A stretch of 64,000 bases of DNA from a virus, in the IMG/VR virus record IMGVR_UViG_3300047388_000220, positions 4,975 to 68,974 of that record; one strand, written 5' to 3'. Shown here in pieces: positions 10,664-64,000 of the stretch (its first letter is position 1; every line of letters begins with the position of its first letter). A program made the position numbers and the translations under genes. The notes beneath the pieces were generated by a model, which searched no databases, was not told the DNA's origin, and was given only the letters and a program-made list of their open reading frames with translations.

Positions 10664-10680
10664 TTAGTTTCCTCTTTGAA

Positions 10681-10742: not shown

Positions 10743-10749
10743 ACTTTTG

Positions 10750-11859: not shown

Positions 11860-11938
11860 AGACCTACTCCTTTGCGCAACGAGCGCGTTGTTTCAGCTCC
11901 CGTGTGTGGGAGCGTGGATTTTACAGTAGGATGAATGA

Positions 11939-12007: not shown

Positions 12008-12043
12008 TTATCTTATTCCAATTCTGCAACGTCAGAACAAACT

Positions 12044-12193: not shown

Positions 12194-12211
12194 GTGGGTT
12201 TCCTCCTTGGG

Positions 12212-12853: not shown

Positions 12854-12856
12854 GAC

Positions 12857-41065: not shown

Positions 41066-41553
41066 AACAGATTCCACTGACTAAAAACCAGTTCACTCGG
41101 GTCGATGATGGTGATTTCAACGATTTATCTGCTCGCCAGTGGTGCGCTACATGGACGTCTGGCGGATTCTACGCCATGAGAATGACGGAGGGGAGTCACG
41201 CAACGAGGCAGCGAATATTCATGCACCGTCATATTTTAGGGTTGCCAATAGTTTTCGATGGTCGCGTTGCTGACCACATCAACGGGGATACTCTCGACAA
41301 TCAAAGAGGAAATCTCAGAATCGCGACAGCACGAGAGAATCTACTCAATCAGCGCGCGAGAATGGGAACTATCACAGGCATTAAAGGCGTCGGCTATGAC
41401 CGGCAACGTGATCGGCTGGAAGTAAAAATCACGCTACCGAACGGAAAACATCTGCGCATCGCTAGATTCCTGCCTTCCCAACTAGAAGAGGCGAAACAGT
41501 GCTACCGAGATGCCGCGATGCGGTATTACGGCGAATTTGCGAGGTTCGAATAA
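41062..41553 (+). CDS. HNH endonuclease with AP2-like C-terminus
   Basis: IPLTKN...MHRHIL...DHINGDTLDNQRGNLR; TGIKGV...YYGEFA. Confidence 0.9.
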   Translation: MKQIPLTKNQFTRVDDGDFNDLSARQWCATWTSGGFYAMRMTEGSHATRQRIFMHRHILGLPIVFDGRVADHINGDTLDNQRGNLRIATARENLLNQRARMGTITGIKGVGYDRQRDRLEVKITLPNGKHLRIARFLPSQLEEAKQCYRDAAMRYYGEFARFE

Positions 41554-42563: not shown

Positions 42564-42898
42564 AAGCTCCCTGCAAGTACTGCCTGAAGCGCATCGACAC
42601 GCGGGGGATGCTGGCACACATTCATTTTCGCCATCGCTGCTATGTCGCGCGCGAATTCAGCCTCCAGCCAATCGTGCTTTGGTTTCAGTTGGCGGAGGAT
42701 GGCCTTGAACCACGATTCACGCAGTTACAATTGCCAGCGCCGTCCCCGCTAACCGTCTACTCGCGGCGCCCGCTCGGCTTCATGGCTGCGCCAATACCGG
42801 AGCATCGTAGGCCGAAGGGTTATCAACTGCCTTACGGTTACGCGCGTCCGGCTGATCTACTGCGCACTCAGGTGCGCTACGGCTACATTTTCACGTAA
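42560..42898 (+). CDS. Hypothetical protein with C2H2 zinc finger
   Basis: CKYC...HIHFRH; ATGA overlap. Confidence 0.55.
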   Translation: MKAPCKYCLKRIDTRGMLAHIHFRHRCYVAREFSLQPIVLWFQLAEDGLEPRFTQLQLPAPSPLTVYSRRPLGFMAAPIPEHRRPKGYQLPYGYARPADLLRTQVRYGYIFT

Positions 42899-42918
42899 TC
42901 CAGGAAAGGGAAAGCATC

Positions 42919-43833
42919 ATGGCAGACCAGCAACTAGCAGTTAGCCCGCAGCGCCAGGGCATCATCGCCAAGTTTGGCGAGCAGTACGACATGGAACCAG
43001 GCAAGGTGATGAACATCGTCGCCAACACTGTATTCAAGGGCAGCGACAAGGAGCCCCCGCTCGTGCCCGAGGAAATTGCAGCGGCGCTGATTGTCTGCAA
43101 TGCCTATAACCTCAACCCATTCACGAAAGAGATTTACGCCTTCCGGTCGAAAGGTAAACTGCTGATCGTCGTTGGCATCGACGGCTGGGCGACCATCGTC
43201 AACCGGCAGCCGCAGTTCAATGGCATCGAGTTCGAAGAGCACTTCGACGATCGAGGGAACATCAGGGCTGTGACCTGCAGGATGCACCGCAAGGACCGCG
43301 CGCTGCCCACGGTCGTCACCGAGTACACGCATGAGTGCCGGCGCGACACGATTCCCTGGAACACGATGCCGATCCGCATGACACGCAACCGGGCATTCGT
43401 GCAGTGCGCCCGTATAGCGTTCTCGGTAAGCGGCATCATCGACAACGATGAGGCGCAAACGATTGAGGGCAGTCCGGAGTTTGTTACCGGCGAGACGAAG
43501 GCCATCATCGACCAGTCATCGAGCAAGATGGATGCGGTCAAGGCGGTGATCAAGAAGCGGGCGCAGGCTGGGAATGGGAAAGAGCAGGCGCAGCAGTCGG
43601 CGGAGCTGGCAGACCTCATGCAGACCGAAACCGTTGACCCCAAGAAAAGCGAATGTCCTGAGTGTAAGGCATCCTTCGGCATTCATCTTGTTACATGCTC
43701 ACAGTTCTCCTGCAAAGAGTGCGGGGCCCGTGGGCCGGCGGAAGATCATCGCGGCGGGTGTCCTACCTTGAAAAAAGAAGCCGCCGCGCAGCCGCAGGGT
43801 GAGGCGCAACCGCAGACAGCGGAGCTTTGGTAA
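42919..43833 (+). CDS. bet: Bet/RecT-family single-strand annealing protein
   Basis: YNLNPFTKEIYAF; VVGIDGW; PWNTMPIRMTRNRAFVQCARIAF. Confidence 0.9.
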   Translation: MADQQLAVSPQRQGIIAKFGEQYDMEPGKVMNIVANTVFKGSDKEPPLVPEEIAAALIVCNAYNLNPFTKEIYAFRSKGKLLIVVGIDGWATIVNRQPQFNGIEFEEHFDDRGNIRAVTCRMHRKDRALPTVVTEYTHECRRDTIPWNTMPIRMTRNRAFVQCARIAFSVSGIIDNDEAQTIEGSPEFVTGETKAIIDQSSSKMDAVKAVIKKRAQAGNGKEQAQQSAELADLMQTETVDPKKSECPECKASFGIHLVTCSQFSCKECGARGPAEDHRGGCPTLKKEAAAQPQGEAQPQTAELW

Positions 43834-43844
43834 AGGAATTCTCG

Positions 43845-44072
43845 ATGCAGTTCAGCGACTACGATCTCTGGAAGACTACAGAGCCAGAATATTACGACAC
43901 CAGCGAAGAGTGCCCAGACTGCGGCAAACCTCCCGACCGCTGCCGGTGCGAGGAGAACGCGGATATTGCTGAGAGCGTCTCGCGGTCGAATGAGCGGCGC
44001 CCTGATCTAGCAGACCGGCAATTCGACCCAGAGCCATTCCAACCGGCAGAGGATGAGAAATATCCATTCTGA
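43845..44072 (+). CDS. Hypothetical protein (75 aa)
   Basis: AAGGA RBS; YDLWKTT motif, CPDC. Confidence 0.6.
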   Translation: MQFSDYDLWKTTEPEYYDTSEECPDCGKPPDRCRCEENADIAESVSRSNERRPDLADRQFDPEPFQPAEDEKYPF

Positions 44073-44082
44073 AAGGTAAGTC

Positions 44083-45978
44083 ATGTTCATCAAGTCTTTA
44101 CATCTCCACAACTGGCTGTCCCATCAAGACACGACGCTTGAGTTAGATAAGTTAGTTAGCGTCCGCGGCGCCAACGGCGGAGGCAAGTCTAGCGTCGAGC
44201 AGGCCATCCAGTATCTGCTCACCGGCCGCTGCGAAGGCACCAACGACAAGGGCGCAGGCTCCCGCGATCTGATCCGCCGCGGCGCGGACAAGTCGGCCAT
44301 CACCGCCGAGATCCTCAACGGCTCGGCCGATGCGATCAAGATGCGGGCGAGCCTGACGGAGAAATCCGGCCGCACGGTCCAGGTCAAGAAAGAGGCGGAC
44401 CCAAGCTGGACCGGCTCGGACTGGCTAGGGATGCTGGCCCTGCAGCGCGAGACGCTCGACTGTCTTTCGAATTCCCGCTACTTCGTCGGCATGGACGATG
44501 CCCGGCAAAAGGCATTGCTGGCCGCCATTATCCTGCCAGCGCAGGTCAAGTTCGATCCCTGGGTCGAGTCTGCCGTCAACCAATGTGGGCTGGCTGTCGA
44601 CTGGAGCATGAAAGCGTGGGATCTGATCGCGCTCGCCTACGACAAAGCCTACAAAGAGCGCACTCTGATCAACCGGATCATCAAGGAATGGAAAGAGCCT
44701 GAGCCGGTTACAGCGCAAACCATGGACCTCAAAGAGATTCAGGCGCGCATAGGCCAGCGCCAGAACGAGCGGACGCAGCTCGCCGTGGACCGTCAGAGAA
44801 TCCTGGACAAGTGGGAGCGGGCCAATACTGGCGCCGCCAAGCTGGGCGAGAAGATCAAGGCGCTCGAGGATAAGCTCGTCACGGAGCAGACCCGGCGCGC
44901 CGCGGTCGCCAAGGATCAACTATCGAAGACAGCGCTCAAGGAGGCGGAGCGCTTGGCAGCCGGCGCCGAGAAGGCAAAGAAGATCGACGCGGACATTGCC
45001 AGAATCCAAGCCGACGTAGCGGCCTATCGGAAACAAATGTCTAGAGTGAACGCGCTCTGCGATGCCGGTTTATGCCCAACCTGCACCCAACCTATCTCCG
45101 ACGATTTCATACAGACGATTACCACCCCCATCATTGAGCAGATTTCTGTCCTAGATAACCAAGAGCGCGACCTGCAGGCCGCCCGCAAGGACCTGGGCGA
45201 CTACGCCGGCGCGCAGCGGTGCCTGGAGGCCCACGCGCAGGCCGAGAAGAACCTCGTCCTGGTCGACAGCCACATCGCAGACGTCGAGAAGGAGATCAAG
45301 GAACTGACCAACGAGAGGGCGCAGGCGGTCGAGAACAGCCAGGCGAAGCCTGCCACGTCCGATCTCGACGCCAAGATCGCCGACCTCGACGCGCGCCTAC
45401 AGAAAGGCAATGCCGCTTTGACCGCAGCCATTCAGGCGGAGACGAACAGGCGGCACTACGATGAGGCTATCGAGGCCAAAAAGAAACTCGACGCCAAGCA
45501 GGGGCTTCTGGAGCGGCTGCTGGACCACTTTGGGCCGAAGGGGATTCAGGCGAAGTTGCTCGACGAGCACGTTGGCGGATTCCAAGCGTCCATGAATGCC
45601 ATACTCTCGGTCTGGGGATACGAGGCGCATCTCCAGTTCGAGCCGTATGAGTTTGGTATTTCGTTCGCCGGCAAACCGGAAGTGTACACGTTGCGCACCA
45701 TTTCGAAGTCGCAGAAACATTCCTTCGCGATCGCGTTCCAGGTAGCCCTGGCGAGGGTGACGGGTATCAACTTCGTGGTTGTCGACGAGGCCGATATGTT
45801 GCTCGACGCCAACCGCGGGATGCTCTACAAGGCGCTGATCGGGGCCGGGCTGGATCAGTGCATCGTGCTCCAGTCTGATCTCCGGCGCGAAGTGCCCAAG
45901 GTGCCCAACGCGGCGTTCTACATGCTGTCGCTCGATAAGTCCGGCGACGTGCCAACGACGATGGCGGAGAGGCTATAA
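44083..45978 (+). CDS. SbcC/Rad50-like SMC ATPase
   Basis: Walker A GANGGGKS; long coiled coil with CPTC zinc hook; degenerate signature ISKSQK; Walker B VVVDEAD. Confidence 0.88.
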   Translation: MFIKSLHLHNWLSHQDTTLELDKLVSVRGANGGGKSSVEQAIQYLLTGRCEGTNDKGAGSRDLIRRGADKSAITAEILNGSADAIKMRASLTEKSGRTVQVKKEADPSWTGSDWLGMLALQRETLDCLSNSRYFVGMDDARQKALLAAIILPAQVKFDPWVESAVNQCGLAVDWSMKAWDLIALAYDKAYKERTLINRIIKEWKEPEPVTAQTMDLKEIQARIGQRQNERTQLAVDRQRILDKWERANTGAAKLGEKIKALEDKLVTEQTRRAAVAKDQLSKTALKEAERLAAGAEKAKKIDADIARIQADVAAYRKQMSRVNALCDAGLCPTCTQPISDDFIQTITTPIIEQISVLDNQERDLQAARKDLGDYAGAQRCLEAHAQAEKNLVLVDSHIADVEKEIKELTNERAQAVENSQAKPATSDLDAKIADLDARLQKGNAALTAAIQAETNRRHYDEAIEAKKKLDAKQGLLERLLDHFGPKGIQAKLLDEHVGGFQASMNAILSVWGYEAHLQFEPYEFGISFAGKPEVYTLRTISKSQKHSFAIAFQVALARVTGINFVVVDEADMLLDANRGMLYKALIGAGLDQCIVLQSDLRREVPKVPNAAFYMLSLDKSGDVPTTMAERL

Positions 45979-49918: not shown

Positions 49919-49949
49919 GTCTGCCCCCATGAGTTTGAGAGGTAACAAA

Positions 49950-51230
49950 ATGAGCAGCCCCGCGAACATCGATGCGGAGAAGACGATACTCGGCGCCGTG
50001 CTTCTCGACAACCAGGCCCTGGCCGAAGCCGAGGAGAAGATCAACGCTGACGATTTTTCCCTCGACAGCCATCGCCGCATCTTCCTGCGCATGTCTGAAC
50101 TCGCGCGGGCACGCCACCAGGTCGACATCGTTACGCTCGCCAATGACCTAACGCAGCACAAGGAAATCGAATCGGTTGGCGGAGTGGCCTACCTGGCGTC
50201 GCTAACTGAGGGCTTGCCACGGCGGCCGGTCATTGGCGAGTACCTGTCTATCTTGAAAGACAAGTGCTTACTCCGCCGCACCATGATGATCTGCTCCGGC
50301 GGCGTGGCTGAAGCTGCCGACCAGGGCCGCACCGGCATGGAAGTGATCTCCCGCGTCATTGCCGACCTCGAGGATGTCATCTTCCACAACGACCGAGGCA
50401 GCGACCTCGAATCGGTCGGCCAGTGGCTCAGCCAGAACGACGTATTTGCGGAGCGCGTGCCAGGGATCTTCACCGGGATCGATGACTACGACCAGATGAC
50501 TTTCGGACTACACCCGGGGGAGTTGACTGTAATTGCCGCTCGAACTAGCGTCGGCAAAACGTCCATGGCTGGCACATTGGCCCTGAATATTGGCAAGCGT
50601 GGCAAGCAGGTTGCCGTCTTTGCCAATGAGCAGCGAAAGGCGTCATTCATCGGCCGCATGCTCTGCGGCAGCGCCAGCGTGTCCTACGACACCTATCGCC
50701 GCGGCAGGCTCGATTGGGTGGAGAAGCAGTACATCGAGGAAGCCATCACTGCGTTCAGGGTGCTTCCAATCTATATTGACCAGCGCTCCAGCATGAGTTG
50801 CCCAAGCATTCGCGCGAAAGCGTCGAGGATGAAGCGCTCCGGTGAACTTGATCTCGTGATCGTAGACCAGTTATCCCGGCTAACTGGCGAGGGTATCTAT
50901 CAGAAGGGGATGCGTGGGGACGAGGTTATCGGCGCCAAAGTGTCGTATCTCAAGGGACTCGCTGAGGATCTGACCGTGCCGGTTGTTCTATTCCACCAGT
51001 TGAATCGCGGAACGCTGAAGAACGAGGGCCAGCGGCCCAGTCTTGAGAATCTGAAAAACTCAGGCGAGTGCGAAGAGCATGCTGACAATGTTATTTTGCT
51101 CCACCGGCCCGACCAGAGCGCCACCAAGCTAGAGGCGGAGGTTATCATCGCCAAGCAGCGCGACGGCGCTACGGGAACAATTCACTGCGAGTTTGTGCCG
51201 CAGACGTGTTTATGGAGGAATAAACGATGA
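49950..51230 (+). CDS. dnaB: Replicative DNA helicase DnaB
   Basis: AEKTILGAVLLD; GELTVIAARTSVGKTS; VIVDQL; QLNRG; LKNSGECEEHAD; IIAKQRDG. Confidence 0.95.
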   Translation: MSSPANIDAEKTILGAVLLDNQALAEAEEKINADDFSLDSHRRIFLRMSELARARHQVDIVTLANDLTQHKEIESVGGVAYLASLTEGLPRRPVIGEYLSILKDKCLLRRTMMICSGGVAEAADQGRTGMEVISRVIADLEDVIFHNDRGSDLESVGQWLSQNDVFAERVPGIFTGIDDYDQMTFGLHPGELTVIAARTSVGKTSMAGTLALNIGKRGKQVAVFANEQRKASFIGRMLCGSASVSYDTYRRGRLDWVEKQYIEEAITAFRVLPIYIDQRSSMSCPSIRAKASRMKRSGELDLVIVDQLSRLTGEGIYQKGMRGDEVIGAKVSYLKGLAEDLTVPVVLFHQLNRGTLKNEGQRPSLENLKNSGECEEHADNVILLHRPDQSATKLEAEVIIAKQRDGATGTIHCEFVPQTCLWRNKR

Positions 51231-51550: not shown

Positions 51551-51600
51551 GTGGTATGCTAAAGGGCATCAATCGAACGAGTCTTAGGAGGACTCGCCCA

Positions 51601-52329
51601 ATGGTCACTCTGAGTGGACAGAGCGTGATGCCCTCTCCTGAAAACATACCATACGGATTTTGTCACTGCGACTGTGGGCAGAAAACAACGGTGCCCACAG
51701 AAACCAATCGGTATAAAGGATGGACTAAAGGTGTTCCCCTTCTATTCCTGAACGGGCATTGTAATCGAATTACTCCTGTATTTGAGGCTGTTCAGCCGTT
51801 CAAGATTGACGGGGAACTGTGCAATTTCATCCCACTATCTAAGGGTCTCATCACCATCGTGGACGCCACTTTGTACCCATTCCTTATGCGATGGAAATGG
51901 TGCGCCAAGCAGTCAGCCACAGGCAAACCTTTTTACGCAATTCGCAATCCTGACCGAAGAATCGGAGAAACAAAAGTAGTCCGCATGCACCGCGTTGTTG
52001 CCGGGATTGAGGACGATTCTATCTTTGTAGATCATCGCTTTCATAACACCCTTGACAATCGAGCTTCGCAATTGCGCACGTGCACCGTGCGCGAAAACAG
52101 CACGAATATGCTCAAGCACAACGACAATTCAACAGGCTACAAGGGTGTGACTTTTGATAAAAGGCGCGGCAAATACGCGGCTCAGATTAGCTCGGCAGGC
52201 GTGTATTACTTCCTTGGCTATTTCGATTCACCCCTAAAAGCCGCTCTCGCTTATGACGCAGCGGCCATTCGGCTGCATGGAGAGTTCGCGCATCTCAATT
52301 TCCCGAACAGAACGGAGCATGTGGCATGA
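51601..52329 (+). CDS. HNH-AP2 homing endonuclease between groES and groEL
   Basis: IPYGFCHCDCG; MHRVV...VDHRFHNTLDNRASQLR; TGYKGV...AALAYDAAAIRLHGEFAHLNF; start uncertain (51601 has an AGGAGG RBS). Confidence 0.9.
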   Translation: MVTLSGQSVMPSPENIPYGFCHCDCGQKTTVPTETNRYKGWTKGVPLLFLNGHCNRITPVFEAVQPFKIDGELCNFIPLSKGLITIVDATLYPFLMRWKWCAKQSATGKPFYAIRNPDRRIGETKVVRMHRVVAGIEDDSIFVDHRFHNTLDNRASQLRTCTVRENSTNMLKHNDNSTGYKGVTFDKRRGKYAAQISSAGVYYFLGYFDSPLKAALAYDAAAIRLHGEFAHLNFPNRTEHVA

Positions 52330-53927
52330 GCAGGCAAACGCTAAGCGGCAAAGAGTTACGATCCAAACTCCTCGAAGGTGTGAACATCCTTGCAAGCGCG
52401 GTAATTGCGACTTTGGGGCCGAAGGGGCGGACGGTGATCCTCGAACGTGACGCAAGGTGGCCGCCTGCGGTGACGAAGGATGGCGTGACGGTCAGTAAAG
52501 AGGTCCGCGACTTGGCCTGCCCCTACGCCAACGCAGGCGCGCATCTGATCCGCGAAGCCGCATCGAAGACGTCAGATGATTCGGGGGATGGGACCACAAC
52601 GTCTACCCTGTTGGCTCAAGTGATCTTCCAAAAGGGCATCGAGGCACTCGACGCCGGGGCCAACCCGGTCGCCTTGAATCGCGGCATCGCAGCGGCGGTC
52701 GCTGTCGTCGTGGAGCACATCAAGGCGATTGCGCAACCAGTTCAGGACGACGAGACTATCGCCCGCGTGGGAACTATCGCCTCAAACGGCGACCGCTCCA
52801 TCGGTGAACTGATCGCCCTGGCCATGAAGCGGGTAGGCCGCGACGGAGTGATCACTATCGCTGAATCCTCCGACGCCGAGACCACGCTCCAGATCGTCGA
52901 GGGGATGCAGATCGACCGCGGCTGGCTGGCCTACCCATTCATCACGGATCCGGAGCGGCTCGAAGCGACCCTCCACGAGCCCTACATCCTACTCACCGAG
53001 CGCAAACTGTTTACCATGACTCCGGAGATTGACACCGTACTCGCCCAGGTGGGGCAGGCAGGCAAGCCGGTGCTGATCGTGGCCGGCGACTACGACCAGC
53101 CATTCGTTGTGAGCCTGATCCACAACAAGCAGCTTGGCGTGCTGCACTCCCTGCCCGTCAAAGCGCCGGCATTCGGAGACCTGCGACGGGCCACGCTTGA
53201 GGATATGGCGACCGTTACCGGAGCCTACGCCTTCACCGAGGACTGCGGGCGACCGCTGTCGAGCGTCACCATGGCCGACCTGGGGCGGGCGGTGCGCGTG
53301 ACCTGCGGGCAGAATCATACCACCATCGCCGGCGGATATGGCGACGAGCATGCCAAGGAATCGCGCATGACGCTGCTGCGGTCGCTGATTGAGGCGACAG
53401 AGAATGACCTCGATAAAGAGCGTCTACGGCAGCGCCTGGCGCGGCTGGCGTCCGGTGTAGCTGTGATCCGGGTGGGAGCTGTGACCGAGGGAGAGATGCG
53501 GGAACGGCGGGACCGCGTTGAGGATGCGGTCTGCGCGACCAGGGCGGCTGTTGAGGAGGGAATAGTGCCGGGCGGGGGAAAGGCGCTGCTGTGCCAGCAA
53601 AGCGACCTCGATATATTCAAGGACAAGTTTAGCGGCGACGAGTTGGCCGGAGTTAGGATCATTCAACAGGCTCTTGAATACCCCGCACGGCAGATTGCGC
53701 TCAATGCTGGACTTGACGCGAACATGATAATCACTAAATATGCGCGCGGAACAGGGCCTATCAACTGGGGATTCAACGCAGCCACGGAAACCTGGGAAGA
53801 CTTGATTCAAACCGGCGTGATCGACCCCGCCAAGGTCGTCCGCTGCGCGCTGCAGAACGCCGCCAGCGTGGCAGCGCTGCTCCTGACGACAGAGTGCATG
53901 GTCGCGGAAATTCGGGAGAAGAAGTGA
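52326..53927 (+). CDS. groEL: Chaperonin GroEL (divergent, no GGM tail)
   Basis: TLGPKGRTV; TKDGVTV; GDGTTT; KAPAFGD; EDAVCATRAAVEEGIVPGGG; IDPAKVVRCALQNAASVA. Confidence 0.97.
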   Translation: MSRQTLSGKELRSKLLEGVNILASAVIATLGPKGRTVILERDARWPPAVTKDGVTVSKEVRDLACPYANAGAHLIREAASKTSDDSGDGTTTSTLLAQVIFQKGIEALDAGANPVALNRGIAAAVAVVVEHIKAIAQPVQDDETIARVGTIASNGDRSIGELIALAMKRVGRDGVITIAESSDAETTLQIVEGMQIDRGWLAYPFITDPERLEATLHEPYILLTERKLFTMTPEIDTVLAQVGQAGKPVLIVAGDYDQPFVVSLIHNKQLGVLHSLPVKAPAFGDLRRATLEDMATVTGAYAFTEDCGRPLSSVTMADLGRAVRVTCGQNHTTIAGGYGDEHAKESRMTLLRSLIEATENDLDKERLRQRLARLASGVAVIRVGAVTEGEMRERRDRVEDAVCATRAAVEEGIVPGGGKALLCQQSDLDIFKDKFSGDELAGVRIIQQALEYPARQIALNAGLDANMIITKYARGTGPINWGFNAATETWEDLIQTGVIDPAKVVRCALQNAASVAALLLTTECMVAEIREKK

Positions 53928-55292: not shown

Positions 55293-55473
55293 AGAGATAG
55301 AGAGCAAGCCGGATTTCTATTGTGTTGATGCCGAAGCGGGGGCGAGATGTGAATGCACAATTCAATGCAGAGGATGCGCCAGAATCGTCGCCAGACGTGC
55401 TGTGGATCGGGAGCAGCCTCCAGACCTCAACGCCGAATGTTCGCCCGGTTCAGACTCGGACGCCCCAAAGTAA
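55285..55473 (+). CDS. Small Cys-rich protein; last gene of the plus arm, converging on terL
   Basis: GGAGG RBS; DFYC...CECTIQCRGC. Confidence 0.5.
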   Translation: MSREIESKPDFYCVDAEAGARCECTIQCRGCARIVARRAVDREQPPDLNAECSPGSDSDAPK

Positions 55474-56968
55474 TCGGGCCTGAGTTGGCCGCGATCTCTT
55501 TCTCCATCCTCCAGCGCATCACCGCGATCGAGCGCTGATCTACCCCGGCCTCGATTAGCTTCTGTATCTTCTCCTCGTTCACGATCTCCTCCGGCTTCTT
55601 GTCGCCGGTAAAGAACGTGTTTGTGTATAGGTCGCAATCGAGGCAATCGTCTAACTCATCGCCCTTGACCTTGAGGATGGCGCCCGGCTTGTCTGGATCA
55701 TGCTTTCGGCTGGTCAGCGATTCGAAGCTCCGCGGAACCATGTCGGTCAGAATGAATTCCCTCCGCGATAGTCTTCCGCTCAACGACTGCGCGTTGCCGA
55801 TACTGTCCTTGGCTGCGCTCACGAGGGCCAGGTCGTATTGATCGAATACCGCCTGGATCAATTCGCGGTTACTCTTGCCGGTCCCGACGTGAGCATCCAT
55901 CGCGGGGTCGCAATATCCGGTCACGATCCTGGTCCGCCGGCCGTTGATCTCGCGAGAGAGGAACTTCCGGCCGATGTGGTGTGCGTACTCCTCTGAGGGC
56001 ATCTTCCGTTCGATGTCCTCAGCTATCTTAAACATGCGATTGCTTTCGTTCATGAAGTAGAGGCCGGTTGCGGCGGCCGAGTTTGAGAATCCGTAGTCCA
56101 TGACGATCATGTGCTGATGCCACCATTGCTCGCCGCACTCGGAGTACGGGAAGATGTAGCTCTCATTGAGGAACGGGAAGAAGGCGCCCTCGGTGTGGCA
56201 CCAGCAGCCCTCGAGCAGTTTCTTCCGCACATCTGCGGTCTGCGAGAGTAGCATGCCCCGCTTGCGCTCGTCGTACATTGGATTCTCAGAGAGCTTCGCA
56301 GGAATGAAACAAGTGGTCAGCATGACGGGGCCGTCGTCGCTGCTCCACCTTGCGCCGGCATAAACCGCGCACGGCTTGACCGATTTCTCAGGATGGCACA
56401 CAGGACAATTCCCATTCAGGAAGAGGCGCATGAGCCAGGGCGTCGATGGGTTCGCGGTCAGGCGAATGCGGTCCCTGAGACCGTACTCCGGCGGCGTCGA
56501 GACCCATGGAAACAACTCGCGAACGCGCTTCTCTGTTTGGAATTGCGCTTCATCGATGCCGAGCCAGGAGATAGGCTTGCCGGTGTAGAGTTCAAGATCC
56601 TTGTCGGCCGCCATGTATCCCAGGCGCATGAGTGCGCCAGACGGGAAACGCCACAACTTGCCGCCGTCAGACTTGCGACCACCCAAAGGGAGATAGATTT
56701 TCTCCATCTCGTCCATGATGTTGGTCATTTCGGTGTACGACTTCCGGAGCAGGATGCCGCGGAAATTGGGATTGTCGTACTCCTGGGCGGAGTCTGCGAC
56801 AAGCACGTTGCTTTTGCCGCCGCCAGACTGGCCGCCGAATAAGACTAACTGCGCGCGGCACTCGAGGAACGTCGCTTGCGCCTGGTTTACCGGCCTCCAG
56901 CCAGCGACCTCAGACAGATTCGCCGGGAGATCGACGAATCCGCGATCTTCTAAAAGGATTAGAGCCAC
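55427..56968 (-). CDS. terL: Terminase large subunit
   Basis: Walker A GGQSGGGKS; Walker B WLGIDEA; LTANP coupling motif; nuclease MDYGFS, YCDPA, DDCLDC. Confidence 0.93.
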   Translation of the reverse strand: MALILLEDRGFVDLPANLSEVAGWRPVNQAQATFLECRAQLVLFGGQSGGGKSNVLVADSAQEYDNPNFRGILLRKSYTEMTNIMDEMEKIYLPLGGRKSDGGKLWRFPSGALMRLGYMAADKDLELYTGKPISWLGIDEAQFQTEKRVRELFPWVSTPPEYGLRDRIRLTANPSTPWLMRLFLNGNCPVCHPEKSVKPCAVYAGARWSSDDGPVMLTTCFIPAKLSENPMYDERKRGMLLSQTADVRKKLLEGCWCHTEGAFFPFLNESYIFPYSECGEQWWHQHMIVMDYGFSNSAAATGLYFMNESNRMFKIAEDIERKMPSEEYAHHIGRKFLSREINGRRTRIVTGYCDPAMDAHVGTGKSNRELIQAVFDQYDLALVSAAKDSIGNAQSLSGRLSRREFILTDMVPRSFESLTSRKHDPDKPGAILKVKGDELDDCLDCDLYTNTFFTGDKKPEEIVNEEKIQKLIEAGVDQRSIAVMRWRMEKEIAANSGPITLGRPSLNRANIRR

Positions 56969-57523
56969 TTAGAAACTCTTCCAAGGGTCGTCCGGCTCTG
57001 CCTCGATTGTTGGCGAAGTATGCTGAACGGGCCTTTGCGTGATAACTTGCCGAGTCTCGGTGATTTGGTGGGTCAGGATGATCTGCTCCGCCGGCCGGTA
57101 GATTCTCGGCGCCTCCTGCGGTGCAGGTCCGCTTGATGCGTCGGGGACGAAGTTGCCGTCCAGCAGCAGCCCAACCCGTTTGTACCCCATCTCGATTGCA
57201 TTGACCTTCGGGGTGGCCAGGCTGGGGGTCGCCTCAAGTATCTTCCGCGGAATGGTGATGACCTGCTTCAAGTTGGAATCGAGCATTTCAACGTGGATAG
57301 TCCGCTTTTTGACGATCTGCTTGGCAAGCTCCGCCTCAATGGGCTGGCTGCGCCTGGTGATCTCATCGTGGACCGCCTTGCGTCGATAGAGCCAAGCACC
57401 ATCTTTCGACGGATACCCAGCCTCGATCGCTGCTTTGCCGATGTCGCGGCAGGAGATATAGGCGTCGACGAAGCGTAACTCCTGGGCTGAGAGGGGTAGA
57501 GCTATCTGCGGTTGTGTGTCCAT
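56969..57523 (-). CDS. terS: Terminase small subunit (start revised to MDTQPQ)
   Basis: LSAQELRFVDAYISCRDIGKAAIEAGY HTH typical of TerS; abuts terL. Confidence 0.8.
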   Translation of the reverse strand: MDTQPQIALPLSAQELRFVDAYISCRDIGKAAIEAGYPSKDGAWLYRRKAVHDEITRRSQPIEAELAKQIVKKRTIHVEMLDSNLKQVITIPRKILEATPSLATPKVNAIEMGYKRVGLLLDGNFVPDASSGPAPQEAPRIYRPAEQIILTHQITETRQVITQRPVQHTSPTIEAEPDDPWKSF

Positions 57524-57524
57524 T

Positions 57525-60500
57525 TTACGCTCCGCCTCCGCCGGTTGCCGGTGCGGGCGCCTGGTCGGCCTGCCCCATGGCCTTGTCAAAGGCTGCCTGC
57601 ATCTCGTCGCGCCTCCGGTCATCCATGATTTTATCGATGTCTCGCTCGTGGCGGGCGAGAATTGGCTCAATCGCTTCCCGCTCGTCGGCGCTCGCCTTCT
57701 GCCATACGTTGAGCATCTGCTCGATATGGCCATCCGCCGCCAAGCGGTTGAACGCGCGCGCGATCGGAACCTCGTCCGATTCCCGCTCCGCCCGGTTCAC
57801 ATCGCGGTCCGTGACCTTGCCCTCGTCGAGAAACCTGTCGATCAGTTTCTGGTCGATGTCATTGGTGCGGTACATGCGGACGATGGCGTCCATGGCTTTG
57901 TAGTGAGCATCCTGCTCCGCCGTCTTCGTCCCGGGCGGGCGGTTCTCCATGGAATACTCCCGCGCCGCATTCATGGCCGGCGAGTTCTGAATGTAGCTCG
58001 GGGCCCGCTGGAACCCCAGTTGGCCGAGAGCCATGTCGCCGGGGTGCTTCATCGCCTCCTGGAGCATCGAGCCGAGGCTATCCTCGGCACCGCGCTGCTC
58101 GAGTAGTTTGGCCGCACTTGAGAACGAGAACGGAATAAGTTGCTTGCCAGCCCACTCCGCCACTTCGCCAATCTGCTGGAACGCGGTATCGTCCTTGTGC
58201 CGGATCTCGGTCCCGTAGAAGTCCTTGTTCTGGAGCATCTCGGAGGTAGCCTCCCAGAGCGGGCCGAGCTTGTTGGCGACCGTGGTCAGTGGGCTGTGGC
58301 TGAAGGCGAACACATCTTTCATGTACCCCGGGATGTTGAGATAGGTTCCGTCTGTATTCTTGAGATAGAAATAGTCTTTATACGTCTTGGGGCCCTCTCC
58401 GGTGCGCAGGTAGTTATAGCCTGCCCCGATGTATCCAACAGCCATCGGAAGCGCCAGAGCGAACGCCAGAGCCGGCGTAAGGCGTGGTTTCTTGCCCTGG
58501 AGGACACTGCCGGCGCCGCGGGCCAGTCCCTTCGATGCTTCGAACGCTTCCCGGTAACTGCCATAATTCCAGCCGACCGAGCGGGTTGCGACCTGGGCCA
58601 GATCGCGGACCGCCTTATTCCAGAACAGATTCTCGTAAACCATCTGGCCGGCGCGGTTGTCTACCGAGTCCCATGCTTCATCGAGCCTTCCACGCAACTG
58701 CTCGTGCGTGATCCGGCCCTTGTCGGCCTCGTCGATGATGTCGTGCGCCATCCCGTAGAAGATGCCGAACTTCATCCGTGGCACATAGTATTCCATCACC
58801 GGTGAGATCAGCCCATGGAGCACGGCGCCGGGGGCCTGCGACAGCCCCTTGAGGATAGCGCCATTGCGGAACGAGTTTACAGCCTTACGGAATGGATGGA
58901 TGGCGACCGTGTTCATCTTGGCCCGGCCGCCGGCGATGGCTACCGCTTCCGCCTCGCGCGCGAGTTTAGCGTACTTGCCTGGGTCAAGGTATTCCTGCAT
59001 CAGTCGGTGGCCGTTGCGGACCGTGTTGAAGATCGAGAGCGGAAGCAGGGCCACCCGGCTCAGCGACATGCCAGCCTTTACTGGCTTGCCCTCGCTCAGT
59101 TGCTGGAGACCGAGGGCGACGTCTGACGCCACGCCAACGACCGAGATAGTCGTCGCGTGGAATGCGCTGATCCCCAACTGGAGCGCGTTCATGTTGTCAT
59201 TCAGCCAGCGCAAGGTGTCGTAGACGCTCGACTTGCCGGCCATGCCGCGGGAAACGTAGTTGTTGAATACCTTGGCCGCCTCCGCCTGCGCGAAGTAATA
59301 GCCTCGAATTGTCATTGCCTCGTGTGTGGCGTCCTCTATGTCCTCAGAGAACGCACCCGGATACTTACGCTTGCCGCCTGGGTAGGTCAGCGGCTGGGTC
59401 ACATCCGCGAGCTTATCTTCGTCGAGAACAGTTTCGCGCCCGTAGACGGTGGAAATTCGGTCGTCGAGCTGAGTCCAGCCCTCCGGCTTTTTGGCTCCGA
59501 TTCTGACAAACCGCGCCGTGCCGGCCTGCTTCATGACATCCAGCGTCTGGTGCGCCATTAGGAATTGGGCCATCTCGGCGTACTTCATCAGGAAGGAATC
59601 AACCGGATTCCAGCTTTTCGGCACGAATCCGAGGTCTAGCCCATCTTGCATGGTCGGGATGGTGCGCTTCTTGAGGAATGAGGCTTGGCCGGCCAGGGGC
59701 CGCTTACCGGTGAGCAAGCCCTTGATGTGCGCCGAGACGGTTGAGGGCCGCTCCCAGATGTGGGGGAAGTAGTTCTCGATGTAGTTTTGAAGAACCTCGG
59801 GCTTGAGCTTCTGTAGCTCGTCACGGATTGAATCGAATGCCGCCCTGAAGACATTGGCTAGGGTGACATCTGACGGGCTCAGGCGAGACAGGTCGCCACT
59901 CTCGACGGCATTCCAGAAGCGCTTTGATTCATCGTGGCTCCTGGTCGTCCAGCGCTTCGAGGCATCGCTCAGCTTGTGCACCGCGATCGCTACGCGCCGG
60001 TCCATCTCGCCGCGGGTCTGGCGCATCATGGCTTTCTGCTCGCTCTTGTCGGTCGGCTCGTCCGCTACCCAGTCAACCATGCGCTTCGAAACGTCAGGGA
60101 ACAGGCGCGCGAATACCGCGGGGTTGGCGAATCCGAAGGCGCTGAGAGTGGCGTCTAGGTCTGCGCCGGTACGGGTTCCGGAAGTGGCTCGCTTGCTGGG
60201 GAGGTCTTCTTTTTCTCCTCCGCCAGTACCTGATAAGCCTTTTCGATCCGGCCGTGTCCCGGCCTCGGGGTTATTATCATGTCTTTCTGGTCCCACTTGA
60301 TTTTCGGTATCTCCATGACCGCTCCTCGTTTCTCTGATTACATCTGCTGCCAACTTGGCGAGGTTATCGGCGGCCTGCCCATGTTCCGTGACGAGCCGGG
60401 CGAACTCGCCGGGAACGTGCGCCGCGCGGCGCTGCTCGATGGCGGTCTGAGCGGCTGGTATCTCTTCGGTTTTCGGCGTGGCCTTCGCTCGCGCGGTCGC

Positions 60501-63500
60501 GGAGAATGATGGCTTCGCGGGCGCTGGCTTCTTTTCGGGTAGCGACAAAAGGGTGTACTCGCCAAAAGCAGCCATACGCAAGTTCTCTTGCGTTCCCGCG
60601 CCATTGGCCTTTCGGAAGTCCACTGTGGGGAGCTTGCCCCTTGAAACGGTGAGCGTGTACGTTTCGCCGTCGGTCAGATAACTACCAGGCGGCGCTTTGT
60701 CTACGCGCACCCGCATCCCTGTTTGGAAGTCGGCGGGCCTGATTGGCTTCTCTGCTTGCGGCGCAGGCGCCTTTTCCGGTTGAGTCTCTACGCGCCCGGC
60801 GCTGCTGATACGCATACCCGGATACTTCTCGGCCAGCAACTGCTCAGCGTGGCGACGATTCTCGGCCTCGATTTGGACAGTCTTCGGATGCGGATCGCCC
60901 GCGTACTTCGAGACTTCTGCCTCGTAAGTCTGCAGGGTCGGCTTGGCAGTCAAAGCCTTCCCCTTGAGCTGAACCTCCTCCTTCGTCCCATCCTTCTTCG
61001 AGATGGTCACGGAGTTGACGGTGAACGTCTTGCCGTCGGCCTCAGTCATGCCGGTGTAACGCTTAGCCTCGTCCGGCTTGACGTAGGCGACCGTGGCGTG
61101 AGGCTTGTATTCAGGGAAGTTGCGATCGACAAACAACCCGTGCTTGTCGAGTTCCTTCTCCATGCGGCGCAGGTCGGCCGACTCTACAGGGACGATGATC
61201 GGCGCAGCTCCGTCTGAATGCTCGCTTGGTGGGAATGATGCCGTCTTGCCGAGCGTCGCCTCAAACGGGGCCTGCTTTTCGAGGTACGCGCGGATTCCGG
61301 CTGTGTCGTTGCCGTCGATTCCATACCGCACAGTGATGTGGGCATCGTCGATCAGGCCCTCTCCCATGAGGTCGGCTGGGTCAATCGCCTTTCGGAGCGC
61401 GGCCAGGGCCTTGCCTGCGTCGCTACCAGGAGGAATATCAGCCTGCGTTGAACCATGAGCATGTTTGCCTGGTACTTTGGCATTTACACGTTCCTTACTC
61501 TCGGGTAGATTTGGTTTGTGGACTCCTACCCCTGCACTAACTGCGGTACCCCCGTTCTCCGGAAGCCCTCTCACCGGCAAAGGTCGCCCAACGTCTTTTG
61601 CAGTCACTTGTGCTATAGCCGCCACAATGCGGTCGGCTATATCCATCCCCACGGGTACAGATACTTTAAGATCAACGGCAGGAATTTTGCCGAGCACCGA
61701 CTCGTCATGGAGAAGCACTTGGGCAGACGACTTGAGCCGGGCGAGGTTGTCCACCATATCGACGGGGACAAGCTTAACAACAGCATCGCGAATCTTGAGA
61801 TCATGGAGTTGAGAGATCACATAGTCCATCACAAGCCGTTGAGTTGGGACATCGAACTCGCGAAGACTCTTCTCCGAAGAGGCGACAGCATGGAAAGCGT
61901 CGCGCGCCTCCTCGGGATTCACTACTCCTCCATCAGCACCGCGCTCAAGAGTAGAGGCATTACGCTGGACATGCTCCGCCCCAGAAGGACCTGGAAGAGC
62001 CTTTGATTCTGGCTTCTTTACTTCTTCTTTTTGTTGAGCATCATGCGCTTGCCCGGGCGGTCCGGCTTCGCTGGCGCCTGCTCTGGCAGGTCCATTCCCT
62101 TGCTGCTCTGGTTCCACTCGTCCACTTTCCCCTGGCCGCCCAGCGCTTCCTTCCCTGCCGGGCTGTTGCCCCATCTCATCTGGCGTTTTGATTGGAACGG
62201 CATTTTCTTTTTCTCCTTGTCCTGGTCGATTGTCTGCAACTGTACCGGCAGGCTGCTCTGCGCTGATCCGCTGTTCATCGGGCTTTTGCTCCTTTGCGAG
62301 AGTGCCGTCGAGATCCACATACAAGGCCTTCCCCGCCGGTACGGCCGGCATTTCAAACGGCTTGTCGCTGTTTGTCGGGACGTTGACTTCATTGTCGAGC
62401 AGGCCGCCGAAGTCGTGACCCTTGACGTTCGTCACCGGCAGGTCGCCAAGCCCGTTCGCCTTGAGCCATTCAGCCACCTGAGGATCGGCGGCGCGCGCGG
62501 TGAATATCTTGACCGGCGTTCCCTTGGCGACCGCCTCTTTGATCTGAGCAACACGCTGCGGGAGAGGGGCTCCGAGTGGGGGAGCGGCCTCGGCCGGCTT
62601 CAGGTCACTCCCCTTGACAGTCACCGTCCCATTGGGCGTCTGCACGCTCCAGCGCCCGCCCTGCGAGAAGTTAGGATTCCCGCCCTGGACGGTGCCTGCG
62701 GTGCCGTCGGGCAGGGTTACGGCGGTGCCCTTGGTGAGCTTGGGCACCATCTGTGCACCAATTGGCGTCATGCCGGGCATCGCTGGAACCTGGGGCGCGG
62801 CTGGCTTCTTGGTAGGTCGCTCCTGGACCTTATCGGTCCATAGCCGGTCGCCGAATATCAGCGAAGCGTCGATGTCCACGCTCTTGCCAACTATCGATGG
62901 ATCGACGTCGCCGGGAACGATGATCCGCTCAGTTTTTCCGTTGGGAGTGCGGATCTCCATGATTCTGCTAATCGAAGGCTTCGCAGTTCCAGCCTTGATC
63001 TCGTCAGGTCGCGTGCTATCGGCATACGCGGTCTGCTTTTCTGAGACACTGAGAACCTCGCCATTCAGTGGAAAGTGGCCTTCCCGCTTCTTGGCTGGTG
63101 CCGCCTGCGCGGCTTTCAGTTTCGCCTCGATCTGCGCGCCGAGCTTGTCTACCGTTTTCTGATCCCCCGCCGCCTCCGCCTCTTTCTGCTTCGCGTAGAG
63201 GTCGTCCGTCTCCTTCATCGCGTCGGCCACCGCCGGGGAGGGAACGACCTGCATCTCCGAGACCTGGTTCGGGTCTCCCGGCTTGCCCGTCTGGACGCCG
63301 TACTGCGGGATATTCAGCCCGTTACTGTCGATCTTGTCTTTCGAGACGACGGGGAGCTGGCTCTCTACCGCCTGCTGCAGCGCCGGTACAGCGTCCGGGG
63401 AGGGAGCAACCACCCGCGCGGCGTTGATGTCGGTGATCGTCTCAGGCGCCTTGCCGCGGTCGTCCTTGTTCTCGATCGAGTCCTCAGACTTTACCCTGGG

Positions 63501-64000
63501 GCCGACGACGCTCGCGCCCGGGACTCCGGCGATGACCGCTTTCGCCATCTGCTCAAATTTGGCTTTCTGTGCCTCCGCCGATTTTCGTAACTCCTCGGGG
63601 TCGGTGCTCGCCTGTACGGTAGGGCGCTGGCCCTCTGGCGGCTGCCCTGAGGCGCCTGGCGCTCCGGGTGATGGTTTCCCCTGCCCCGCTGCCGCGACGT
63701 CTGCCATGGGCTTCCCCGTGAGCGCGGCGGTGGCTGCAGCGAGCGGGCCGGTCGCGGGGGTAGCCGGAGTGGCGGGCTTGGGAGCGTTCGTATTGTCTAT
63801 AGCTTCCTGGAGAAGCTCAGACAGAGCCACATGGCGGCCAGACAATTCCTCTGCCGCTGGGATATTGCCAGCCTTCTCCGTGCGGTCCGCTTCCTCGGCA
63901 ATCGTATCGAGCAGGCTACGCAGTTGCTCGGGCGAGGCCCCCTCAACCCGGGGTCGCATATTCTCGACGATGTGGTCGAGCAGACTCTTCGGTTGCGCTT
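57525..64000 (-). CDS. Giant polyvalent (putative internal virion / DNA ejection) protein; 5' end beyond the window
   Basis: Frame open to the window edge (AQPKSLLDHIVENM...); RelA/SpoT-like, permuted HAD-like and 2H phosphoesterase modules; helical C-terminal region with NKDFYGTEI motif as in phage ejection proteins. Confidence 0.8.
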   Translation of the reverse strand, partial: AQPKSLLDHIVENMRPRVEGASPEQLRSLLDTIAEEADRTEKAGNIPAAEELSGRHVALSELLQEAIDNTNAPKPATPATPATGPLAAATAALTGKPMADVAAAGQGKPSPGAPGASGQPPEGQRPTVQASTDPEELRKSAEAQKAKFEQMAKAVIAGVPGASVVGPRVKSEDSIENKDDRGKAPETITDINAARVVAPSPDAVPALQQAVESQLPVVSKDKIDSNGLNIPQYGVQTGKPGDPNQVSEMQVVPSPAVADAMKETDDLYAKQKEAEAAGDQKTVDKLGAQIEAKLKAAQAAPAKKREGHFPLNGEVLSVSEKQTAYADSTRPDEIKAGTAKPSISRIMEIRTPNGKTERIIVPGDVDPSIVGKSVDIDASLIFGDRLWTDKVQERPTKKPAAPQVPAMPGMTPIGAQMVPKLTKGTAVTLPDGTAGTVQGGNPNFSQGGRWSVQTPNGTVTVKGSDLKPAEAAPPLGAPLPQRVAQIKEAVAKGTPVKIFTARAADPQVAEWLKANGLGDLPVTNVKGHDFGGLLDNEVNVPTNSDKPFEMPAVPAGKALYVDLDGTLAKEQKPDEQRISAEQPAGTVADNRPGQGEKENAVPIKTPDEMGQQPGREGSAGRPGESGRVEPEQQGNGPARAGASEAGPPGQAHDAQQKEEVKKPESKALPGPSGAEHVQRNASTLERGADGGVVNPEEARDAFHAVASSEKSLREFDVPTQRLVMDYVISQLHDLKIRDAVVKLVPVDMVDNLARLKSSAQVLLHDESVLGKIPAVDLKVSVPVGMDIADRIVAAIAQVTAKDVGRPLPVRGLPENGGTAVSAGVGVHKPNLPESKERVNAKVPGKHAHGSTQADIPPGSDAGKALAALRKAIDPADLMGEGLIDDAHITVRYGIDGNDTAGIRAYLEKQAPFEATLGKTASFPPSEHSDGAAPIIVPVESADLRRMEKELDKHGLFVDRNFPEYKPHATVAYVKPDEAKRYTGMTEADGKTFTVNSVTISKKDGTKEEVQLKGKALTAKPTLQTYEAEVSKYAGDPHPKTVQIEAENRRHAEQLLAEKYPGMRISSAGRVETQPEKAPAPQAEKPIRPADFQTGMRVRVDKAPPGSYLTDGETYTLTVSRGKLPTVDFRKANGAGTQENLRMAAFGEYTLLSLPEKKPAPAKPSFSATARAKATPKTEEIPAAQTAIEQRRAAHVPGEFARLVTEHGQAADNLAKLAADVIRETRSGHGDTENQVGPERHDNNPEAGTRPDRKGLSGTGGGEKEDLPSKRATSGTRTGADLDATLSAFGFANPAVFARLFPDVSKRMVDWVADEPTDKSEQKAMMRQTRGEMDRRVAIAVHKLSDASKRWTTRSHDESKRFWNAVESGDLSRLSPSDVTLANVFRAAFDSIRDELQKLKPEVLQNYIENYFPHIWERPSTVSAHIKGLLTGKRPLAGQASFLKKRTIPTMQDGLDLGFVPKSWNPVDSFLMKYAEMAQFLMAHQTLDVMKQAGTARFVRIGAKKPEGWTQLDDRISTVYGRETVLDEDKLADVTQPLTYPGGKRKYPGAFSEDIEDATHEAMTIRGYYFAQAEAAKVFNNYVSRGMAGKSSVYDTLRWLNDNMNALQLGISAFHATTISVVGVASDVALGLQQLSEGKPVKAGMSLSRVALLPLSIFNTVRNGHRLMQEYLDPGKYAKLAREAEAVAIAGGRAKMNTVAIHPFRKAVNSFRNGAILKGLSQAPGAVLHGLISPVMEYYVPRMKFGIFYGMAHDIIDEADKGRITHEQLRGRLDEAWDSVDNRAGQMVYENLFWNKAVRDLAQVATRSVGWNYGSYREAFEASKGLARGAGSVLQGKKPRLTPALAFALALPMAVGYIGAGYNYLRTGEGPKTYKDYFYLKNTDGTYLNIPGYMKDVFAFSHSPLTTVANKLGPLWEATSEMLQNKDFYGTEIRHKDDTAFQQIGEVAEWAGKQLIPFSFSSAAKLLEQRGAEDSLGSMLQEAMKHPGDMALGQLGFQRAPSYIQNSPAMNAAREYSMENRPPGTKTAEQDAHYKAMDAIVRMYRTNDIDQKLIDRFLDEGKVTDRDVNRAERESDEVPIARAFNRLAADGHIEQMLNVWQKASADEREAIEPILARHERDIDKIMDDRRRDEMQAAFDKAMGQADQAPAPATGGGGA
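60155..60316 (-). CDS. Nested 53-aa ORF in the +1 frame of the giant gene
   Basis: GAGGAG-N5-ATG; MEIPKIKWDQKDMIITPRPGHGRIEKAYQVLAEEKKKTSPASEPLPEPVPAQT. Confidence 0.5.
   Translation of the reverse strand: MEIPKIKWDQKDMIITPRPGHGRIEKAYQVLAEEKKKTSPASEPLPEPVPAQT
61483..61511 (+). promoter_or_regulatory. Antisense sigma70 promoter inside the giant gene
   Basis: TTTACA-N17-TAGATT, 6 nt before the GTG of the nested HNH. Confidence 0.65.
61518..62006 (+). CDS. HNH endonuclease nested antisense within the giant gene
   Basis: CTNC...FCSHLC zinc finger; EHRLVMEKHLGRRLEPGEVVHHIDGDKLNNSIANLEIM; C-terminal HTH. Confidence 0.88.
   Translation: MDSYPCTNCGTPVLRKPSHRQRSPNVFCSHLCYSRHNAVGYIHPHGYRYFKINGRNFAEHRLVMEKHLGRRLEPGEVVHHIDGDKLNNSIANLEIMELRDHIVHHKPLSWDIELAKTLLRRGDSMESVARLLGIHYSSISTALKSRGITLDMLRPRRTWKSL
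62018..62203 (-). CDS. Nested 61-aa basic protein in the +1 frame of the giant gene
   Basis: AAGGAG RBS; MPFQSKRQMRWGNSPAGKEALGGQGKVDEWNQSSKGMDLPE, resembling small phage MPFKSKAQ-type proteins. Confidence 0.65.
   Translation of the reverse strand: MPFQSKRQMRWGNSPAGKEALGGQGKVDEWNQSSKGMDLPEQAPAKPDRPGKRMMLNKKKK

Follow-up and report, generated by a model that had tools for sequence, protein, structure and literature searches.

The DNA analysed here, hereafter the window, comprises 64,000 nucleotides (nt), bases 4975–68974 of the 68,974-base uncultured virus record IMGVR_UViG_3300047388_000220, and has a guanine-plus-cytosine (GC) content of about 58%. Its minus strand carries a giant open reading frame (ORF) at 57525–63959, which encodes 2144 amino acids (aa) from the ATG at 63959; the frame is open to the end of the record, and the true start is therefore uncertain. 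Two small ORFs lie inside it. The first, pep1, occupies 62018–62203 in its core form (61 aa plus stop), with the N-terminus MPF.S..Q that is canonical for its family; a longer candidate form (62018–62278) would yield 86 aa from an in-frame ATG at 62278. Each of the two starts is preceded on the minus strand by the Shine-Dalgarno (SD) sequence AAGGAG, at 62213–62218 (9 nt before ATG 62203) and at 62289–62294 (10 nt before ATG 62278). The second ORF, pep2, at 60155–60316 (minus strand, 53 aa plus stop), follows a GAGGAG motif at 60322–60327, 5 nt before ATG 60316, and is probably a product of chance. An initial annotation, based on the letters of the sequence, had placed both ORFs on the strand of the giant ORF and in its +1 frame, each behind its own ribosome-binding site; strand, frame, motifs, and spacing were all recovered in our analysis.

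The same annotation described the giant protein as linker-like where the small ORFs overlap it, and this description was accurate. Over pep1, the host-frame linker (62018–62278, minus strand; approximately aa 574–660 of the giant protein, P0001) is the most G/R/E/P/Q-rich part of the protein, with a fraction of 0.61 against a mean of 0.32 (rank 23 of 2097 segments of 60 aa). Its hydrophobic content is among the lowest of the giant protein (0.08 versus 0.25). Over pep2, the corresponding values are 0.46 (rank 207 of 2097) and 0.07. The giant ORF contains ten out-of-frame ATG-initiated ORFs of at least 40 aa on the same strand, all of them in the +1 frame. Nine ORFs of at least 50 aa were observed, compared with 6.0 ± 1.8 expected from 300 codon shuffles, and four SD-led ATGs opened at least 50 aa, compared with 1.3 ± 1.2 expected; two of these four are the alternative starts of pep1. 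Length and an SD sequence alone are thus unremarkable in a GC-rich giant gene, and it is homology and frame-specific conservation that single out pep1.

A resemblance of pep1 to small phage proteins beginning MPFKSKAQ..W, which had been noted in the initial annotation, proved to be real. A profile built from the window peptide and three relatives matched 1185 proteins of 29–112 aa at E ≤ 0.01. At E ≤ 0.001 it matched 1204 clusters at 50% identity, 130 of which reached 1e-10, together with 277 proteins of 131–2000 aa. The family follows the pattern MP[FY]KS.AQ ... E[WF] ... LPE with a basic tail, and the profile match of pep1 is significant and starts from residue 1. Its members consist of a conserved N-terminal domain of about 43 residues followed by a K/R-rich tail; in an alignment of 41 sequences, P2, S5, L39, and P40 are invariant, and M1, Q8, and E29 are at least 90% conserved. 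Among 120 listed longer proteins, the domain begins within the first five residues in 106; in seven it lies further in by pattern, yet with a methionine directly at the motif, and the remaining seven were unmatched by the pattern. Multi-domain phage proteins headed by the small domain carry DUF6321, NUDIX, SET, ferritin, or Zn peptidase domains. One protein of 709 aa (P0257) has the small domain in frame at an internal position (aa 334–391), between VTC and NUDIX-SLT, where it appears as an ordinary module.

Library scans returned no Pfam, PHROG, or NCBIfam model for the pep1 peptide, and Pfam and PHROG scans of 41 family members found no model that covers the family; DUF6496 and phrog_2423 were absent from the matches of both the window peptide and the 41 members. 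A feature search of the ESM Atlas placed the family among viral hypothetical proteins. The nearest Pfam-bearing cluster there was DUF3008 (PF11450; score 0.88, 37% of members), which is below the threshold. By hmmscan, DUF3008 matched neither the window peptide (E ≤ 1) nor any of the 41 members (E ≤ 10). Members of DUF3008 begin in a similar way (MP.KS.AQ), and we treat this likeness as a lead only, as the Pfam model gave no match here. The 61-aa translation contains 14 K+R and 6 D+E residues and no cysteine; it has neither a hydrophobic leader nor the lipobox cysteine that marks Rz1 lipoproteins of the outer-membrane spanin (o-spanin) type. An AlphaFold2 model based on the 41-sequence alignment (mean predicted local distance difference test score, pLDDT, 84.5; 89–93 over residues 1–40) predicts three short helices (residues 6–12, 15–21, and 24–34) and an unstructured basic tail. 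A Foldseek search with this model gave no match in the PDB at E ≤ 0.001 and, in BFVD, weak matches to small uncharacterised phage proteins. In deposited phage genomes, tblastn of the 61-aa peptide gave matches at E=4 and E=8 only, and tblastn of an AT-rich family member gave none. The 61-, 86-, and 124-aa readings of pep1 and the readings of pep2 were absent from about 15 billion predicted proteins.

Nested copies of the gene were found in other phages. Three viral contigs (L001, L002, and L003) encode relatives of the giant protein (48–72% identical), and each holds a pep1 homologue in the +1 frame. A tBLASTn search of the 61-aa peptide against L001, one of the checks proposed for the initial annotation, gave 60% identity (E 1.5e-15), while the host frame of the same stretch reached 38% (E 5e-6). 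Two metagenomic loci, L056 and L061, provided two more copies in relatives of the window's giant. The core start of pep1 aligns with the N-terminus of the stand-alone proteins; SD-like motifs stand 6–7 nt before the homologous core start in L001, L002, and L003, and the start codon itself is GTG in L003 and L056. In all six loci (the window, L001, L002, L003, L056, and L061) a second SD-led ATG is located 23–26 codons upstream of the core start, with its SD motif 7–10 nt before it; in the window this is the ATG at 62278, 75 nt upstream. The N-terminal extension opened by this codon would begin M(x)N[SL]G[ST]A. Over the extension (62204–62278), the alternative frame shows the somewhat higher amino acid identity (0.43 versus 0.32 for the host frame), and an 85-aa protein resembling the longer form occurs among gene-caller predictions elsewhere (P0004). 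The ATG at 62392, which opens the longest reading, was rejected as a start of pep1, since that reading only mirrors a conserved domain of the host protein.

A pattern scan of viral contigs extended the census; 39 of 599 stretches were confirmed among the matches listed. In 14 of these 39 loci an open frame of more than 1400 codons on the same strand encloses the small gene (that of L042 is cut at the contig edge). The other 25 copies, likewise among the matches listed, are ordinary, closely packed small genes, apart from that of L035, which heads a protein of 377 aa. Besides the window, the gene occurs in the +1 frame with its start kept in the five homologous loci and in 12 further contigs whose giants are mostly unrelated. 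All 13 giants that were re-examined hold the small gene in the +1 frame relative to the host, at host positions ranging from residue 44 to residue 2572; three of them were extended to full length and comprise 3561, 3505, and 3379 codons. The GC content of the phages with a nested gene ranges from 0.31 to 0.67.

By BLAST and HMMER, the giants of these other phages showed no similarity to the window's giant, except for L006 over the overlapped linker only, and the C-terminal module of the window's giant was undetectable in five other records with the nested gene. Host-frame BLASTP between groups of giants mostly matched the overlapped segment alone, with a few groups sharing other segments too. 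The recognisable neighbouring domains also vary: a 2H phosphoesterase lies about 225 aa downstream of the nested gene in the window. In L011 and L044 the upstream neighbours are His_Phos_1 and LRR_5, respectively, and in L045 and L025 the downstream neighbours are DUF3293 and ddrB-ParB. Other giants with the nested gene carry LRR_5, DUF7178 with DUF3293, His_Phos_1, or ddrB-ParB, the last of which is reportedly a domain defined in the original description of polyvalent proteins. In L039 and L042 the nested gene begins 44–49 codons after the start of the giant gene itself, and a ferritin-like ORF (translation read by eye) is located just upstream of these giants (approximately 3390–3860 and 3330–3850, respectively). 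In some database proteins, ferritin (PF00210) also follows the small domain as an in-frame fusion.

The distribution of the nested gene among closer relatives of the window's giant was assessed with an alignment of the conserved C-terminal module of about 860 aa (57528–60146, minus strand), which is 48–75% identical in relatives. A metagenome scan with this alignment recovered 48 loci, 27 of them with at least 600 aa of host ORF upstream of the module. The dual-coding segment is present in 4 of the 27, always in the +1 frame (the contigs of L001 and L003 and the new loci L056 and L061). Within the variable N-terminal region it is thus an accessory element that is subject to shuffling. Around the pep1 segment, a search for flanking direct repeats found just imperfect repeats of 11–14 nt, none of which brackets pep1.

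Selection on the two frames was evaluated with 14 embedded copies (near-duplicates L020, L021, and L028 were left out) and 22 stand-alone copies (L010, L035, and the duplicate L031 were left out). Over the 45-codon domain, the host frame contained stops in none of the 14 embedded copies and in all 22 stand-alone copies, while the third frame was interrupted in 12 of 14 and 18 of 22, respectively. Amino acid identity was higher in the small-protein frame than in the host frame, both among AT-rich embedded copies (0.73 versus 0.46) and among GC-rich ones (0.48 versus 0.33). Nucleotide differences between the AT-rich embedded copies were distributed over small-gene codon positions 1, 2, and 3 as 0.256, 0.114, and 0.381. 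When each small protein was recoded synonymously with the codon usage of its host (20,000 trials), the host frame came out open in 4–6% of trials for four GC-rich copies and in 0.06% or less for six AT-rich copies. A stop-free host frame, a better-conserved small protein, and the recoding result together indicate that both frames are kept by selection.

Further comparisons were made within the giant genes. The nested ORF ranks among the four longest of 237–869 out-of-frame open stretches in each AT-rich giant (median 4–7 codons); the other long stretches were considered and set aside as not gene-like in appearance. As a control, the window's other out-of-frame ORFs were inspected where they fall in regions conserved in relatives, and there the host frame was the better conserved one (e.g., 79% versus 55%). 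In the AT-rich embedded copies (L011, L012, L022, L025, L027, L039, L042, and L043), the nested gene has a GC content of 0.45–0.53 within giant genes of 0.32–0.38. Such a local GC island is the expected product of codon choice that keeps two frames open, and could be used as a search signature.

As judged from the aligned codons, these comparisons show the stretch to be dual-coding, with the small gene intact and conserved; the small-protein frame is under purifying selection, and codon choice has cleared the host frame of stops. We therefore interpret ORF 62203–62018 as a probably real, separately translated small gene that the giant gene encloses entirely, with the frame shifted by one base (with a probability of about 0.8), and one stretch of DNA very probably gives rise to two proteins. 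The initial annotation had gone further and proposed that the giant gene absorbs whole small genes as linkers while they stay translatable. For pep1 this idea is supported by its protein family, by the retention of its own SD motif and start in the six loci of this giant family, and by the selection on both frames; for pep2 it probably does not apply.

Several observations weigh against this interpretation. The strongest evidence for selection comes from AT-rich phages with other giant genes. Among the GC-rich copies, that of the window included, nucleotide differences are spread almost evenly over the codon positions (0.412, 0.414, and 0.470), and for any single GC-rich copy a host frame open by chance arises in about 5% of recodings. 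The AT-rich copies, for their part, have no SD motif before the start and are preceded by A-rich leaders only, which we take to be typical of their hosts. The census of 39 loci is a biased sample. Moreover, the nested gene is dispensable to the family of the window's giant, since 23 of the 27 relatives with a long N-terminal part do without it. A look-up of RNA runs listed none that contains this stretch. We infer the independent initiation of pep1 from sequence signals, and the start in use may be either 62278 or 62203, so that both forms are candidates. The weakest step is the functional proposal made below, which is drawn from domain co-occurrence and gene position.

The absence of the nested gene from those 23 relatives, together with the flat codon-position signal of the GC-rich group, would also suit a decaying relic, swallowed at a gene fusion or inserted recently and left untranslated, in which the likeness to the family would reflect recency and not selection. 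We consider this improbable. The embedded copies are only 36–60% identical to the window peptide, yet all 16 aligned copies, as well as L056 and L061, keep start, stop, and domain, and SD motifs are kept too. In addition, the small-protein frame is the better conserved one in both GC groups, and the AT-rich group varies most at codon position 3 and least at position 2. It is exceedingly improbable that the selected reading is instead the host-frame linker motif [ND]A[VI]QE.S...GG.R.GVE, for instance as a protease site, with the +1 ORF as its incidental shadow. The host-frame segment is indeed recognisably alike between giants that are otherwise mostly unrelated. However, a direct reading of the alignments identifies this motif as the conserved N-terminus of the small gene read one base earlier, and the small-protein frame is the one that is better conserved. 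The small protein is also encoded by a normal, tightly packed stand-alone gene whose host-equivalent frame contains stops in 22 of 22 cases, and its domain occurs in frame at the head of long proteins.

The +1 frame might also be reached by programmed ribosomal frameshifting and not from its own start, either through a +1 shift that yields a truncated giant ending in the small domain, or through a −1 shift in the K-rich tail, by which the small domain would be continued into the downstream half of the giant protein. The GC-rich copies have the +1 frame open for 34–95 codons upstream of the start, the tail is lysine-rich, and, because the domain usually heads long proteins in frame, a product combining it with the downstream part would resemble known architectures. 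Nevertheless, frameshifting appears highly unlikely. In the AT-rich copies a stop in the small-gene frame stands 1–10 codons before the ATG and leaves no room for an upstream shift, and the start codon is found exactly at the start of the stand-alone genes. After codon 40, 2 of 16 embedded copies and 7 of 22 stand-alone copies contain a canonical X_XXY_YYZ heptamer, and the tail and stop of the embedded copies are like those of the stand-alone ones. A −1 shift rejoining the host frame was accordingly rejected: slippery heptamers are not enriched, and no signature of a programmed frameshift was found.

Under the interpretation of pep1 as a translated nested gene, ribosomes starting at the internal SD-AUG at 62203, and probably also at 62278, would make the small protein, and for ribosomes travelling along the giant gene this stretch would encode, in frame 0, a disordered G/R/E/P/Q-rich linker between domains. 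The small gene would be the older of the two, given the wide distribution of its family, most of whose members stand alone, and the linker frame would have been laid over it, that is, by overprinting in reverse. The dual-coding segment would then behave as a shuffled cassette of giant multi-domain genes. We tentatively extend this scheme to a possible, although not a probable, general one: the small gene with its read-through linker would be a dual-coding cassette that moves among the giant cargo genes of unrelated phages, the giants would grow by fusing across small genes that were already there, which would thereby become linkers, and the nested protein would be kept for working together with the giant product, perhaps as a basic adaptor in loading the cargo into the capsid or in escorting it out. 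If this were true, giant phage genes would systematically hide unannotated small genes, and ORF 60316–60155 may be a second example in the same gene.

As to function, our guess is that this basic protein acts together with cargo that is packaged or injected; it might, for example, bind nucleic acid or the inside of the capsid. Such a cargo-associated role is favoured because of the N-terminal fusions, the basic tail, and the position of giants beside a terminase gene; Foldseek and the family libraries gave no functional leads for pep1. In the initial annotation, the small proteins had been regarded as possible cognate inhibitors of neighbouring toxic enzyme domains. In favour of this, the copy in the window is flanked by a HAD-like stretch and the 2H phosphoesterase, and co-translation from a single mRNA would suit an antidote. 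However, we now regard an antidote role as very unlikely. The recognisable neighbours differ between giants, with no domain common to those that hold the gene, and in the window about 225 residues separate the small gene from the closest enzyme domain that can be recognised. The family consists mostly of stand-alone proteins or N-terminal domains with unrelated partners, and the cassette is missing from 23 of the 27 relatives of the window's giant. In the absence of a constant partner domain, the idea of a cognate inhibitor is unsupported, and the cargo-associated role is preferred.

The second ORF, 60316–60155, has most probably arisen by chance within a variable linker. It could alternatively be a second real embedded gene, restricted to a lineage and located in the linker just before the conserved C-terminal module, which we consider rather unlikely. 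The case for such a gene comes from two contigs, L055 and L056, that are identical to each other over the pep2 region and carry a module about 63% identical to that of the window. Both hold a 47-aa ORF in the +1 frame (approximately 400–545 in L055 and 4121–4264 in L056) with AAGGAG 7 nt before the ATG, and this ORF terminates at the homologous TAG, just ahead of the conserved C-terminal module. Within its last 15 codons, identity amounts to 10 of 15 positions for the alternative frame, compared with 4 of 15 for the host frame, which is hydrophobic-poor there; the differences at alternative-frame positions 1, 2, and 3 number 4, 2, and 9 (binomial P 0.031 for position 3). This comparison was, however, made post hoc, after many lineages had been looked at, and the 35 N-terminal residues of pep2 do not align with the ORF of L056. 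A comparable ORF is missing from all the other relatives with a readable junction (L048, L049, L051–54, L057, L058, L002, L060, and L061). Searches gave no homologue among the small proteins of a 5.8-billion-protein database, no tBLASTn match at E ≤ 1 in the 48 related loci, nothing in the pattern scan of viral contigs, no relative in a metagenome scan with the pep2 region, and no family in Pfam, PHROGs, or NCBIfam. By codon shuffles, the ORF and its SD motif are at chance level, and the AlphaFold model is poor (pLDDT 60.8).

The giant gene itself contains one Pfam domain above the cut-off, a 2H phosphoesterase or 2'-5' RNA ligase-like domain (PF13563, E 2.4e-09) at 60987–61346 on the minus strand, corresponding to aa 885–1004 of P0001; other Pfam and PHROG matches are weak, and Acb1 is below its cut-off. 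The giant protein had no match in NCBIfam or among PDB sequences, and its conserved C-terminal module had none in Pfam, NCBIfam, PDB sequences, or deposited phages. In deposited phage genomes, neither blastn of the giant gene nor tblastn of its C-terminal 878 aa returned anything. The N-terminal 420 aa of the L002 giant have no counterpart at either end of the window's record.

On the minus strand the giant gene is followed by a 254-codon ORF and then by the gene of the large terminase subunit (TerL; 55427–56968, phrog_979, E 6.5e-27). A giant gene is located upstream of TerL in the window, L001, and L003, and in the unrelated L044. In the last of these, an AT-rich unrelated giant with a nested gene (1847–14872, minus strand; 3550 aa from the ATG) lies directly upstream of the large terminase subunit. 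The 254-codon ORF (56969–57733, minus strand) matched no family; its first ATG would overlap the last 209 nt of the giant ORF, and it may encode the small terminase subunit from a later start. Elsewhere, the window encodes on its plus strand a GroEL-like chaperonin (52326–53927, phrog_5725, E 3.8e-138), beside which lie an HNH endonuclease (51556–52329) and a DnaB-like helicase (49929–51230). It also encodes a recombination module (41499–45978, plus strand) consisting of a RecE-like exonuclease, a Bet/RecT-like annealing protein, and an SbcC-like protein.

Gene callers omit genes nested on the same strand, so that phage annotation misses part of a family of about 1,200 clusters. Its copies, which stand alone, are fused in frame, or are nested, offer a natural series in which to follow the origin of overlaps and the way in which codons are chosen for two frames at once. 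The arrangement also ties a small basic protein to giant genes next to the terminase gene in phages of 31%–67% GC, which makes it a concrete experimental target.

Nested out-of-frame genes are already known in phages; in the literature on polyvalent proteins, nested and overlapping genes, and overprinting, we found no prior account of this family or of this arrangement. The window's giant resembles polyvalent proteins, which are giant multi-domain phage proteins with shuffled modules (PMC5512222). A keyword look-up of that paper finds neither "frameshift," "overlapping," nor "linker," and no nested genes. Whereas polyvalent proteins combine several unrelated effector or enzyme domains, the window's giant shows one recognised enzyme domain, the 2H domain, with the rest of its matches weak.

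The closest parallel is provided by the spanin genes, in which Rz1 lies in the +1 frame of Rz. Embedded genes of this type are known in phages, as in lambda Rz/Rz1 (PMC6139136 and PMC5295617). The lambda pair shares with pep1 a small gene wholly inside a larger gene on the same strand, in the +1 frame and with its own start, and a family with both embedded and separate members. Features of the Rz1-in-Rz type that were found for pep1 as well are a position inside a larger ORF, the same strand, a shifted frame, putative start signals of its own, and selection on both frames. Unlike Rz1, pep1 has no cysteine, lipobox, or signal sequence; its host is a multi-domain giant, and the overlap falls on a disordered linker. 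The embedded pep1 gene is also the more widespread and probably the older partner, and its product is not known to interact physically with the giant protein.

Overprinting is familiar from phiX174, where B is overprinted in A and E in D. In overlapping regions, one of the two products is disordered (PMC8227390 and bioRxiv 10.1101/229690). The pep1 locus is similar to the overprinted genes of small viruses, in that both frames of one stretch code and one product is disordered. However, classical overprinting produces a new frame within an older gene, whereas here the phylogenetic spread of the family suggests that the nested small gene is old and that the enclosing linker frame is the derived one.

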